A stretch of 64,000 nucleotides of DNA from Dictyostelium discoideum. Its lineage: Eukaryota. The translations under genes and the position numbers were made by a program. The notes under the pieces are model-generated. The model was not told where the DNA came from. It did not search any database and saw nothing but the letters and a program-made list of their open reading frames with translations. Positions within the stretch are counted from its first letter, which is position 1; each line of letters opens with the position of its first letter. The DNA lies in the NCBI GenBank assembly GCA_000004695.1, contig CM000153.2, positions 4,704,001 to 4,768,000 on the forward strand, written 5' to 3'. Shown piece by piece: positions 61,267 to 63,768 of the stretch.

Positions 61267-61815
61267 TTAATTAAATAATCTTAATGGTGGATTTGTTTTT
61301 GTACGAGATAAAACCATTTCCATAATCATTTTATTGTGAGAGACGTTTAAATCGAACTTTTCACCCTCTTTAACTATTACGCCATTAATTGAATTTACTT
61401 CGGTAGGTTGACCTCTGAGTATATCTTGTAACATACTTGAATAGTTAGCAGAAGTTTTCAAGACAATATCAGCAACATATTTAAATGCTTCATCTGAATC
61501 CTCTCCATATGGTAATGATATATTTTTTGCTTTACAAACACTTAATGCTTCAATGATAATTTTTTTCATTAAATTCTTGGAGTATTCATTCTCTAATAAT
61601 TGACCATTTGATACACCTAAAACTGCTGATAAAGGATTAATGGCAGCATTAGCCACCACTTTATTCCAAACCAAACCCTCTAAATCATCAGAGATATCAC
61701 TTGAAATTCCAGATTCATTTAAAATATCACAAAATGCTTTCAATGCTAAAATCTCTTCACGAGTGGAAGGTGGTGGAAATTGTGATAACAATTGCTGTTG
61801 TTGTAGTTGTTGTTG

Positions 61816-61848
<33 letters not shown>

Positions 61849-63611
61849 TAAATAAGGTGATGATAAAAATGTTGAACCAATACCAGTTTGTTTAACTGAG
61901 CCAGGAGATACTACAATTGCACCATTACTAGTTACACCTTGCCAAACATGGTTTTTCAAACCTTTATCAATATTAATTATACTTTCGAGTTCTTCACGAT
62001 TTCCAATACCATTTTGTAAAGTTAATACAGCAGCTTTAGGATTTCCACCAACCAATGTAGCGGCAGTTAATGCAGCTTGTTTAGTTGAGTTACTCTTTAC
62101 CAAAACCAATGCTAAATCTGGTGAAATACCATCTTTTAATACTTGCATTCCATCCAAGGTTGCTTTAATACCTTTAATATTCTCTTCTTTACCTTGAGGA
62201 TTAAAAAATTTCATTCCATTCTTATTGATACTTTCGACATGTTCTTTCCAAGCTGAAACCATCCAAACATCAGCAATACCTTTTGAAGCCAATTTTGCAC
62301 TAAAAAGACTTCCCATTGCACCTGCTCCAATCACAACGATCTTTGGTTTCCTTGAACCATTCAATGTCATTTTATTTGGTAAAATATTATTTTTAATTTC
62401 ATTATTAATTAATTTTGTTGAAATCTCTTCTGTTATTGGTGGTGTTGGTGTTAATTTGATTTTATCTTTTTCATTTTCATTTTCTTTAATTTGTGGTGAT
62501 ACTTGTGCCATTGTGGTAGTAGTAGTAGTATTAGGTACTATTACTTGTTGTTGTTGTTGCTGCTGTTGTTGTTGTTTTAATGCTTTATTTTGATTTAAAA
62601 TATTTTTATTTGATGATAAAATTGATGATTTATCAAATAATGAAGTTGATGTTGTATTACTATTTATAATTTTATCTAAAAATGGTGATAATTCAGATTC
62701 TTTCATTGAGAAAGAATGAGTAGGTGATGGAAATTCTCTTGATTCAACTTCATTTTTATAGTTTTTCAAAGATTGATCAATATTTTCTGATAGTGTTGCA
62801 TATTGTTTACAAAATTTAGGGACGAAATCTGAATATAGTCCCAATAGATCATGATAAACTAAAACTTGACCACTTGTACCATTACCAGCACCAATACCAA
62901 TGGTTGGAATCGATAGGGTATTAGTTATGGCCATAGCGGTTGCATGAGGTACCATTTCTAAAACAATAGCAAAACAACCTGCTTCTTGTAATGATTTTGC
63001 GTCCTCTAATAATGATAATGCTTCTTGTTCGGTTTTACCCTGTAATTTAAATCCACCTAGTGAAGTTGAAGTTTGTGGTGTTAGACCAATATGGCCGACA
63101 ACCAATATACCAGTATCACAAATTGCTTTAATCTTTTCAAATTGTTTTTTACCACCTTCCAATTTAATAGCATCAACACCACCTTCCTTTATTAAACGAA
63201 TTGCATTTGAAACCGCATCTTTTGTTGATGTTTCATAACTACCGAATGGCATATCACCAACTACAAATGACCTTTTACTACCTTTCATCACTGATTTACA
63301 ATGATAAATCATTTGTTCCATTGTCACTGATGTTGTACCACTCTCACCATTCATAACCATACCTAATGAATCTCCCACCAGTATCATATCCATTCCTGAT
63401 TTATCAACTATCTTTGAACTTGTAAAATCATATGCTGTAACCATTGAAATTGGTATACCATCTTTATATTTCTTTAAAATATCTAAAACTGTCTTTTTTT
63501 TATTTTCTCCCATTTCCTCTTTAACATGTGTTGAATAATTTAATCTTTGTTGTTGTTGTTGTTGTTGTTGATATTTTCCAAATAATTCATTTTTTTTATT
63601 ATTATAATTAA

Positions 63612-63645
<34 letters not shown>

Positions 63646-63768
63646 AATATTTAAACCATTGTTGGTAGGTAAAAATAATTTATTATTATTATTATTTAAG
63701 TTACTATATATTGATAATTTATTTTTAAATTTATTTATTATTTTAAATTGTTTATTGATTTTAATCAT
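61267..63768 (-). CDS. Bifunctional pantothenate-pathway enzyme: N-terminal ketopantoate hydroxymethyltransferase (PanB) fused to C-terminal 2-dehydropantoate 2-reductase (PanE/ApbA).
   Basis: ATG at 63768; the track start 63777 is a TTG. The PanB part is TVLDILKKYKDGIPISMVTAYDFTSSKIVDKSGMDMILVGDSLGMVMNG...VVGDMPFGSYE...VVGHIGLTPQT...GCFAIVLEMVP. A ~120-aa low-complexity linker follows. The PanE part is KIVVIGAGAMGSLFSAKLASKG (Rossmann GxGxxG)...AALTAATLVGGNPKAAVLTLQNGIGNRE...LVWNKVVANAAINPLSAVLGVSNGQLLE...YSSMLQDILRGQPTEVNSINGVIVKEGEKFDL. Confidence 0.8.

Follow-up and report, generated by a model that had tools for sequence, protein, structure and literature searches.

In Toxoplasma gondii, a 'bifunctional KPHMT-KPR' has been characterised experimentally (PMC8764084, PMC8717973). 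When tagged at its C-terminus, the protein runs near its full predicted mass of 144 kDa, and it co-localises with mitochondrial HSP70 (PMC8764084). A trifunctional ORF is mentioned for Vitrella and Chromera (PMC8717973), and the PanC of Dictyostelium discoideum has been assigned to DDB_G0288935 (PMC5928759). A search of the literature on a Dictyostelium PanB-PanE fusion, or on the pantothenate requirement of Dictyostelium, returned nothing relevant.

The window analysed here is a stretch of 64,000 nucleotides of the D. discoideum genome (contig CM000153.2, positions 4,704,001 to 4,768,000). An initial annotation, made from the sequence alone, had described within it one uninterrupted ORF coding for PanB followed by PanE, and had left the strand unstated. 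The ORF is found on the minus strand, with its ATG at 63768 and its stop at 61267-61269, and the calculated mass of its product is 91.5 kDa. The presence of both enzymes, in this order, in one polypeptide is borne out by sequence, profiles, catalytic residues and predicted fold. We regard the ORF as coding for a bifunctional pantoate synthase, with a probability of roughly 0.88; the two activities, the use of NADPH, the mitochondrial location and the processing are predicted properties of its product. The features of the gene are reported in Table 1.

Table 1. Position in the window of the PanB-PanE coding sequence and of the segments of its product; the last column lists the basis of each assignment.
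Feature	Residues	Coordinates	Strand	Basis
PanB-PanE (KPHMT-KPR) fusion CDS	833 aa + stop	61267..63768	minus	complete, intronless
N-terminal extension, putative mitochondrial targeting peptide	1-90	63499..63768	minus	composition, pLDDT, motif
PanB / ketopantoate hydroxymethyltransferase domain (predicted)	91-353	62710..63498	minus	profiles, residues, fold
Conserved post-PanB segment (S-M-K-E-S-E-L..F..)	354-374	62647..62709	minus	alignment, model
Lineage-specific linker expansion, Asn/Gln/Thr/Lys-rich, poly-Q tract	375-475	62344..62646	minus	alignment, pLDDT
PanE/ApbA N-terminal Rossmann (NADPH-binding) domain (predicted)	476-636	61861..62343	minus	G481xG483xxG486, N586 (E. coli N98)
Poly-Asn/Gln low-complexity insertion between PanE subdomains	637-672	61753..61860	minus	low pLDDT
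PanE/ApbA C-terminal helical (substrate-binding) domain (predicted)	673-833	61270..61752	minus	profile, residues, fold

The translation is identical to the annotated protein of D. discoideum AX4 (XP_637588.1, UniProt Q54LH3) over 100% of its length, so that the public gene model corresponds to the intronless ORF of Table 1. In the program-made list of ORFs the frame begins at a TTG 9 nt ahead of this ATG, a difference of no consequence for a eukaryotic gene. The public name of the protein covers the PanB half only.

The open frame running through PanB and PanE is not due to chance. Shuffling the whole ORF produced a mean of 74 in-frame stops; when only the 366 nt of the linker were shuffled, the mean was 10.4 stops, and the frame stayed open in 0 of 20,000 shuffles. 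The other two frames of the linker contain 12 and 19 stops. That two adjacent genes are read as one, by an error of the assembly or of the gene model, has a negligible probability: no point in favour of such an artefact was found, two D. discoideum assemblies yield an identical protein (EAL64074.1, KAM9941905.1), and fused orthologues are carried by independent genomes and transcriptomes. Complete fused ORFs are contained in the transcriptome assemblies of relatives such as Protostelium, Echinamoeba, Cavostelium and the diplonemids. In addition, three independent environmental contigs of about 2.7 kb (L005-L007, from three samples) each contain only an intronless fused ORF of 750 aa, free of interruptions, coding for a dictyostelid-like orthologue (P0005). 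None of the three carries a poly(A) tail, and since their sample type is not given either, they cannot be called mRNAs.

By profile, residues and model, the segment following the N-terminal extension is a full PanB domain with a predicted TIM-barrel fold and predicted hydroxymethyltransferase activity. The Pfam profile PF02548 matches aa 91-348 with 372.4 bits, against a cut-off of 28.7, and is covered from position 1 to 258 of its 259; the NCBIfam equivalog model TIGR00222 (panB) scores 321.8, against a cut-off of 207.55. E. coli PanB is 39% identical to this half over 264 aa (E 6e-69). The active site is aligned throughout, with D133/S134, D172, K202, E204, H226 and E271 corresponding to E. 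coli D45/S46, D84, K112, E114, H136 and E181; the metal-binding and catalytic roles of D45, D84, E114, K112, H136 and E181 in the E. coli enzyme we take to be those of the 1m3u structure. These active-site residues do not vary among 10 dictyostelid sequences, and each of them is either invariant or conserved to at least 90% across 57 fused proteins. When the PanB half of the AlphaFold model was compared by Foldseek with the solved PanB structures 3vav, 1o68 and 1m3u, target TM-scores of 0.89-0.91 were obtained; block-mean pLDDT values of the domain are mostly 81-98, and mostly about 85-98 when both halves of the model are considered.

The C-terminal part of the protein (aa 476-833) is, on similar grounds, a full PanE/ApbA unit, predicted to be a ketopantoate reductase. 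Its two subdomains are matched by PF02558 (aa 477-636, 98 bits against a cut-off of 22.2) and PF08546 (aa 696-819, 113.5 bits against 22.7), which gives, together with PF02548, the combination of families in one protein expected from the initial annotation. The GxGxxG motif assigned to this half is also present, as G481-A-G483-A-M-G486. The insertion separating the two subdomains differs in length among dictyostelids. Compared with the E. coli enzyme, the C-terminal subdomain shows 30% identity; the half as a whole matches N98, K176, S244, D248 and E256 of E. coli PanE as well as the GxGxxG motif, the matches to N98 and to the motif falling in a low-scoring block of the alignment. In the C-terminal subdomain the relevant residues are K703 (E. 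coli K176), N707, N711, N721, N775, S778 (S244), D782 and E790 (E256). Conservation extends to the Asn residues at the positions of E. coli N180, N184, N194 and N241, which bind pantoate in the E. coli ternary complex. The catalytic residues checked are invariant in the 10 dictyostelid sequences. Across the 57 fused proteins, no substitution is seen at G483, N586 or K703, and conservation reaches at least 90% at G481, G486, S778 and E790. The PanE half of the AlphaFold model reaches TM-scores of 0.88-0.90 with solved ketopantoate reductases.

Since the PanE/ApbA family also holds other 2-oxoacid reductases, such as the D-mandelate dehydrogenases 3wfi and 5x20, the specificity for ketopantoate is a prediction based on residue conservation and on the partner domain. 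The C-terminal half could in principle be one of these other enzymes, similar to D-mandelate or 2-hydroxyacid dehydrogenases and functionally unrelated to PanB. The D-mandelate dehydrogenases match at similar fold scores, and the only NCBIfam model passed is TIGR00745 (apbA_panE), a 'subfamily' model, with 216.6 against a cut-off of 141.35; in the same profile search, none of the narrower NF0050xx 'equivalog' models reaches its cut-off. Such a reading is nevertheless very improbable, as all the E. coli positions considered (N98, K176, N180, N184, N194, N241, S244 and E256) are conserved, and the best solved matches by sequence, 5hws and 5ayv (E 2e-31), are biochemically characterised ketopantoate reductases of Thermococcus kodakarensis. 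Furthermore, some lineages extend the fusion with PanC in the order of the pathway, PanB-PanE-PanC, an order that would make no sense unless the middle domain performed the middle step. The match to PanE profiles agrees with the assignment to ketopantoate reductase originally proposed for this half.

The two enzymes are separated by 122 aa (aa 354-475; N15, K14, T14, S13, Q13), in agreement with the Asn/Gln/Thr-rich linker of about 120 aa already described. Alignment and model indicate that the linker is not spacer throughout: it opens with a conserved, predicted helix some 20 aa long, to which a low-complexity expansion specific to dictyostelids is added. Residues 354-374 have no counterpart in stand-alone E. 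coli PanB, which ends before them; their alignment columns are filled in 95-100% of the 57 fused proteins, and the first 20 or so residues of the linker are present in 98% of these. In the model, aa 357-370 form a helix, and the wider region 351-400 is built of helices whose block means of pLDDT are 68-91. From residue 375 to 475 the occupancy in fused homologues is mostly 7-50%, with higher values only next to PanE (aa 459-475), and aa 411-471 are predicted to be disordered. The median linker of the other fused proteins is 45 aa, vs 122 aa here. The linker was also considered as a decayed PanC domain; this was rejected, as no Pfam match is found there, and triple fusions carry PanC at the C-terminus.

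A disordered, low-complexity segment (aa 411-471) could be accessible to proteases, and Met467 is located 9 residues ahead of the Rossmann strand; the single ORF might thus give rise to two proteins, separated by internal initiation at Met420 or Met467 or by proteolysis of the linker, and acting independently. Three AATAAA hexamers are also contained in the linker. These are no signal in themselves, because the hexamer is frequent throughout the AT-rich CDS, where 14 copies are found. No Met of the linker is conserved; this applies to Met420 and Met467 even among proteins 91-97% identical to the D. discoideum one, and the three closest relatives have I, I and T at the position of M467. Of 95 proteins, 94 retain the fusion with its order of domains, many of them across a linker of just 14-45 aa, which would be hard to explain were the link without a role, and the C-terminally tagged T. 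gondii protein runs at full length (PMC8764084). Separation into two independent proteins is accordingly improbable, and the product is best regarded as a single bifunctional polypeptide. The pTM of the model is 0.50, so that the interface between the two domains is not reliable in it.

The N-terminal extension (aa 1-90) has no counterpart in bacterial PanB. It is rich in Asn and Lys (N28, K12), with a net charge of +9 and the first acidic residue at position 61, and aa 1-85 are predicted to be disordered (pLDDT below 50); its first residues read as quoted in the initial annotation, where a mitochondrial presequence had been suggested. Its end reads R75-L-N-Y78-S79-T-H. A motif R-x-(F/Y)-Y-S is conserved in relatives ahead of the PanB domain; in D. 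discoideum it takes the form R-L-N-Y-S, with the Arg at -4, not -3, of a putative Y|S cleavage site. The sequence of the extension is unconserved beyond the D. discoideum complex. Extensions of at least 15 aa, starting with Met, are present in 43 of the 57 fused proteins, with a median of 56 aa; the longer ones contain on average 6.3 K+R and 1.0 D+E among their first 40 residues, and many start with 'MLR...'. Taken together, these features make a mitochondrial presequence plausible. Met86 is a possible alternative start, yielding a product devoid of the presequence.

The enzyme could be bifunctional and yet cytosolic, if the N-terminal 85 residues were left untranslated by a start at Met86, or if they were one of the Asn-rich stretches of low complexity typical for D. 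discoideum proteins, containing no targeting signal. The extension is weakly amphipathic, with an Eisenberg hydrophobic moment of at most 0.40, and its charge comes from Lys rather than Arg; such a weak moment neither proves nor excludes a presequence. A cytosolic enzyme would also be in line with the long poly-Asn run, with the lack of Arg before R75, with extensions of 0-3 aa in some fused homologues (several of them maybe truncated models), and with an N-terminal GC content (0.13) that differs little from the one of the non-coding flanks (0.10-0.11). Against this, the reading frame is open at Met1, where the annotated Q54LH3 also begins, and four Dictyostelium sequences keep the pattern MIKINKQ.KII..FKN. 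In most fused homologues the extension is basic and poor in acidic residues, often with the classic MLR start, and the R-x-Y-S motif is conserved; the T. gondii fusion is mitochondrial (PMC8764084), and a 'mitochondrial' label is attached in public annotations to some plant PanB homologues and to the fused homologue of Acrasis kona. On balance a cytosolic location appears unlikely, while keeping an appreciable share of the probability, and targeting to mitochondria is the preferred reading.

In the proposed pathway, the 90-aa extension most likely directs the protein to mitochondria, where both the substrate derived from valine and the one-carbon donor of the folate pool are available, and is probably cleaved near the conserved R-x-Y-S motif; cleavage near S79 would leave about 82 kDa. 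The PanB domain, a Mg2+-dependent member of the TIM-barrel PEP-mutase/ICL superfamily, would transfer a hydroxymethyl group from 5,10-methylene-tetrahydrofolate to alpha-ketoisovalerate, forming ketopantoate. This would be reduced with NADPH to D-pantoate by the PanE domain, in which K703 would serve as general acid, partnered by E790. The separately encoded PanC (DDB_G0288935) would then join pantoate to beta-alanine, giving pantothenate for CoA synthesis. A kinetic benefit of the fusion may be sought in a fixed 1:1 stoichiometry, in co-localisation or in channelling; channelling of ketopantoate, as put forward in the initial annotation, is a hypothesis.

The PanB-PanE fusion is a real, ordinary and already known architecture. 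It is recognised in public annotation, as in the Mastigamoeba entry 'putative fused ...'. In the set analysed, both domains are present in 95 proteins, with PanB placed first in 94 of them. All the dictyostelid groups sampled are fused (Dictyostelium, Polysphondylium, Acytostelium, Cavenderia, Heterostelium and Synstelium), and two-domain proteins come from Amoebozoa, Heterolobosea, diplonemids, apusomonads, Filasterea and Perkinsus; in some lineages PanC is added at the C-terminus. The earlier statement that the enzymes are separate in bacteria holds for E. coli K-12, where panB and panE lie at distant loci, but the rarity it implied for the fusion does not, given its wide occurrence in protists. 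A fused protein encoded on a 2.9-Mb ENA contig (P0066) was evaluated as a bacterial fusion and discarded: its gene is split into 617 aa and 148 aa, the neighbours on the contig are sparse and mostly devoid of Pfam matches, and the contig looks like that of a eukaryote run through a prokaryotic gene caller, so that it gives no evidence for a bacterial fusion.

A neighbour-joining tree was built on 220 PanE domains, a set that does not include the T. gondii sequence. One split groups 80 of the 82 fused domains with 7 of the 138 stand-alone ones, at least 3 of these 7 being truncated at the N-terminus; a comparable split is found in 33% of the bootstraps, and with this weak support the 80/82 grouping is suggestive of a single origin of the fusion. 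A wider scenario, which we consider rather doubtful as a whole, would replace scattered lineage-specific events by a single ancient eukaryotic fusion, predating the split of Amoebozoa, Obazoa, Discoba and Alveolata; its division into separate genes in plants and fungi would be secondary, and PanC would have been added in some lineages. The helix at aa 354-374, as an element specific to the fusion, would dock the reductase on the PanB oligomer, and ketopantoate would be handed over within the complex, inside mitochondria.

The gene matters little as a discovery; the reference annotation of D. discoideum has included it from the genome release onwards. Its PanB-only name may lead automated pathway reconstructions to call ketopantoate reductase missing in Dictyostelium. 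Being genetically tractable and free-living, Dictyostelium could be used to distinguish channelling from mere co-localisation, which is harder in Toxoplasma, and the occurrence of the fusion across eukaryotic supergroups, with its PanB-PanE-PanC variants, offers a clean example for the study of gene-fusion evolution.

Among known systems, the T. gondii protein (TGME49_257050) has the same organisation as that of D. discoideum, with PanB and PanE in one polypeptide and PanC (PBAL) encoded separately, but is much larger (144 kDa predicted with the tag, vs 91.5 kDa); as it is absent from the best 120 matches, the likeness is drawn from its published description. The same fusion has been noted in Perkinsus marinus, and a fused protein of Perkinsus olseni (P0095) is among the homologues found. 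In the trifunctional proteins of Sappinia pedata (P0031), Salpingoeca rosetta (P0063) and Vitrella brassicaformis (P0091), an N-terminal PanB-PanE part in the D. discoideum order is followed by a C-terminal PanC, which in D. discoideum is a separate gene (PMC5928759); when the Sappinia PanC domain was used as a query, no dictyostelid protein appeared among the 8000 matches listed, which were saturated with bacterial PanC. The stand-alone PanB of plants and fungi has a homologous PanB domain and no fused reductase, and several plant entries are named '3-methyl-2-oxobutanoate hydroxymethyltransferase 1, mitochondrial'. The ketopantoate reductase of T. kodakarensis, a stand-alone archaeal enzyme, matches the C-terminal half with Foldseek TM-scores of 0.88-0.89 at 29% identity. 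E. coli PanB (b0134, 1m3u) and PanE (b0425, 1ks9) have the folds predicted for the two D. discoideum halves, but are encoded by separate genes about 295 kb apart, and are devoid of the N-terminal extension, of the post-PanB helix and of the low-complexity insertions that distinguish the D. discoideum protein.

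The initial annotation was right in reporting one uninterrupted ORF for ketopantoate hydroxymethyltransferase (PanB) and ketopantoate reductase (PanE); its parts are listed in the table, together with two neighbouring ORFs. The window is very AT-rich (GC about 16-34% in 2-kb windows), so that an open frame of this length cannot be due to chance. When the whole ORF was shuffled, 74 in-frame stops arose on average; shuffling of the 366-nt inter-domain stretch produced a mean of 10.4, with none of 20,000 shuffles left open, and the remaining two frames of this stretch contain 12 and 19 stops. 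The product and XP_637588.1 (EAL64074.1, UniProt Q54LH3) of D. discoideum AX4 agree fully, with 100% identity and 100% coverage; the public gene model thus coincides with this intronless ORF. The public name, '3-methyl-2-oxobutanoate hydroxymethyltransferase', describes the N-terminal half only; the ketopantoate reductase of the C-terminal 360 aa is missing from it and could thus be missed by automated pathway reconstructions. In the literature library searched, no paper discussing the Dictyostelium PanB-PanE protein was found.

Features of the PanB-PanE gene and of two neighbouring ORFs (residues numbered from Met1 of the fusion protein)
Feature	Residues	Window position	Strand	Remarks
PanB-PanE CDS		ATG 63768 to TAA 61267-61269	-	single open frame, 833 codons + stop
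PF02548, ketopantoate hydroxymethyltransferase	91-348		-	Pfam, 372 bits
Post-PanB segment	354-374	62647-62709	-	past the end of E. coli PanB; S-M-K-E-S-E-L..F.. (common motif M-K-x-x-E...F)
PF02558, ketopantoate reductase N-terminal domain	477-636		-	Pfam
Second poly-Asn/Gln insertion	637-672		-	between reductase subdomains
PF08546, ketopantoate reductase C-terminal domain	696-819		-	Pfam
HEAT-repeat ORF		57629-60568	+	979 aa as listed from TTG
Small ORF		60609-61019	-	136 aa as listed, 113 aa from MEKETPQQ...

The central interpretation, PanB followed by PanE in one polypeptide, is also correct: one frame encodes both enzyme domains, each of them complete and with its active site intact, and PanC is separate. 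The protein scores 321.8 with TIGR00222 (panB equivalog, NCBIfam; cut-off 207.55), and the C-terminal half, which would have refuted the reading by failing PanE HMMs, is matched by PF02558, PF08546 and TIGR00745 (apbA_panE, NCBIfam; 216.6, cut-off 141.35). In E. coli K-12 panB and panE are separate and lie about 295 kb apart. The PanB half is 39% identical to E. coli PanB over 264 aa (E 6e-69), and in the alignment E. coli D45/S46, D84, K112, E114, H136 and E181 correspond to D133/S134, D172, K202, E204, H226 and E271. For PanE, K176, S244, D248 and E256 correspond to K703, S778, D782 and E790, N98 to N586, and the GxGxxG motif to G481/G483/G486. The mapped positions are invariant in 10 out of 10 dictyostelid sequences, and invariant or at least 90% conserved across 57 fused proteins from many lineages. 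In an AlphaFold model built on the alignment of these 57 proteins (mean pLDDT 78), the catalytic halves mostly reach 85-98. By Foldseek, target TM values were 0.89-0.91 for the PanB half against solved PanB structures and 0.88-0.90 for the reductase half against solved ketopantoate reductases; among solved chains none spans both halves. The reductase half alone, searched against 1.84 billion representative proteins, retrieved 10,263 relatives, the best of which, after a few fused eukaryotic proteins, are ordinary stand-alone proteins of about 310 aa, 37-45% identical.

The predicted Asn/Gln/Thr-rich linker of about 120 aa was found at the expected length (aa 354-475, 122 aa), but it is not uniform: the first 20 residues or so are conserved, and the Asn/Gln/Thr tract lies only beyond them. 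Between 95% and 100% of the 57 fused proteins have residues aligned to the post-PanB segment; the model places one helix at aa 357-370 and another at 380-407 (block-mean pLDDT 68-91 over 351-400), and the segment may be a fusion-specific structural element. The rest of the linker is mostly occupied in only 7-50% of the same proteins, and pLDDT falls below 50 at aa 411-471. Among fused proteins the median linker length is 45 aa (interquartile range 33-71), versus 92-135 aa in dictyostelids; the long tract is therefore a short conserved connector that has been expanded by low-complexity sequence in dictyostelids. A reductase translated separately from within the ORF would have only Met420 and Met467 as start candidates, and the presence of I, T or a gap at these positions even in the closest relatives argues against a conserved product of this kind.

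E. coli PanB lacks an equivalent of residues 1-90, which are predicted to be disordered and carry a net charge of +9, with no acidic residue before position 61. A Met-started extension of at least 15 aa is present in 43 of the 57 fused proteins (median 56 aa); within their first 40 positions the longer ones average 6.3 K+R versus 1.0 D+E, and many begin with 'MLR...'. Just ahead of the PanB domain an R-x-(F/Y)-Y-S motif is conserved (R-L-N-Y-S-T-H in D. discoideum), which we take to resemble an R-3 type mitochondrial processing peptidase site, and some homologues are labelled 'mitochondrial' in public annotations. These features, and the mitochondrial site of the Toxoplasma gondii fusion protein, make a mitochondrial presequence the most likely reading; the protein would be imported and cleaved near S79. 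Weak amphipathicity (hydrophobic moment at most 0.40), a charge based on Lys and not on Arg, and Met86, which could be an alternative start, keep this assignment provisional.

Within the analysed set, PanB and PanE domains occur together in 95 proteins, with PanB N-terminal in 94; the fusion and its domain order are deeply conserved. The architecture is found in other Dictyostelium species, Polysphondylium violaceum, Acytostelium subglobosum, Cavenderia fasciculata, Heterostelium album and Synstelium polycarpum, and, among other Amoebozoa, in Planoprotostelium, Protostelium, Cavostelium, Echinamoeba, Balamuthia and Mastigamoeba (publicly annotated as 'putative fused ...'). It also occurs in Heterolobosea (Naegleria, Acrasis), diplonemids (Diplonema, Artemidia, Flectonema), Thecamonas, Capsaspora and Perkinsus. 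In Sappinia pedata (P0031) and Salpingoeca rosetta (P0063) a direct Pfam scan gave PanB-PanE-PanC, so that the domains follow the pathway, with PanC at the C-terminus; the homology table's precomputed, non-positional Pfam list had suggested another order. Vitrella has the same three-domain set.

PanB-PanC proteins without PanE form a separate class, common in marine eukaryote assemblies (P0099-P0119). The 1097-aa protein of Heterostelium album PN500 (P0010) has an extra C-terminal PhyH-like domain (PF05721), starting at the expected last PanE helix, where the sequence diverges; the gene model probably runs on into the downstream gene, and the third domain would then not be genuine. The same intronless fused ORF of 750 aa, with 61% identity to the D. 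discoideum protein and about 430-450 nt of AT-rich sequence ahead of it, occurs on three environmental contigs of about 2.7 kb (L005-L007; JGI samples 3300028160, 3300028164, 3300028107); this indicates an uncultured dictyostelid-like organism in all three samples.

A neighbour-joining tree was built from 220 PanE domains, 82 of them fused and 138 stand-alone. One split in it contains 80 fused and 7 'stand-alone' sequences, with a comparable split in only 33% of bootstrap replicates. At least 3 of these 7 begin inside the Rossmann motif and are therefore truncated. The tree is compatible with a common origin of the fusion, but does not establish it. The dictyostelid+Echinamoeba clade includes a 742-aa fusion protein (XP_054158559.1, P0011) of the oribatid mite Oppia nitens (L004:10001-12359; JAPNUB010000033.1, GCA_028296485.1), 58% identical to the Dictyostelium PanB half and with a linker of dictyostelid length (112 aa). 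Its gene lies on an 892-kb scaffold, flanked by intron-containing MFS transporter genes; its span implies about 130 bp of intron sequence, and its GC is 0.48 versus 0.14-0.31 in the flanks. This makes the mite a candidate recipient of pantoate synthesis from an amoebozoan-like eukaryote; the pan-gene transfers that PMC7738191 describes in mites are attributed to bacteria.

Near the D. discoideum gene, the HEAT-repeat ORF, whose true start is probably further upstream, contains the Integrator subunit 4 C-terminal domain PF25458 (32.9 bits, cut-off 27) and long poly-Q/poly-N tracts, and is unrelated to pantothenate metabolism. The small ORF, which closely follows the fusion gene and has its orientation, is Glu/Lys/Gln-rich and coiled-coil-like, with no Pfam match.

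According to established pathway knowledge, PanB would convert alpha-ketoisovalerate and 5,10-methylene-THF to ketopantoate, PanE would reduce this with NADPH to pantoate, and PanC would then make pantothenate. Substrate channelling by the fusion is a hypothesis, and the model, with a pTM of 0.50, gives nothing reliable on relative domain placement. PanB is a decamer, in agreement with several crystal entries containing ten chains, so that, speculatively, several reductases could surround the PanB core of the fused enzyme.

This is an annotated gene of a fusion class that is already known, experimentally studied and widespread in protists; what is useful here is the correction of the annotation, and Dictyostelium as a system for testing what the fusion is good for. 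For the coccidian enzyme the term 'bifunctional KPHMT-KPR' is used in PMC8717973, which also mentions this fusion for Perkinsus marinus. When tagged at its C-terminus, the T. gondii protein ran close to the 144 kDa predicted for the complete polypeptide, and its signal coincided with that of mitochondrial HSP70; the authors concluded that the mitochondrion is the site of pantoate synthesis, from which pantoate is exported (PMC8764084). The T. gondii protein is thus mitochondrial by experiment; for the D. discoideum protein, import and cleavage are proposed by analogy.
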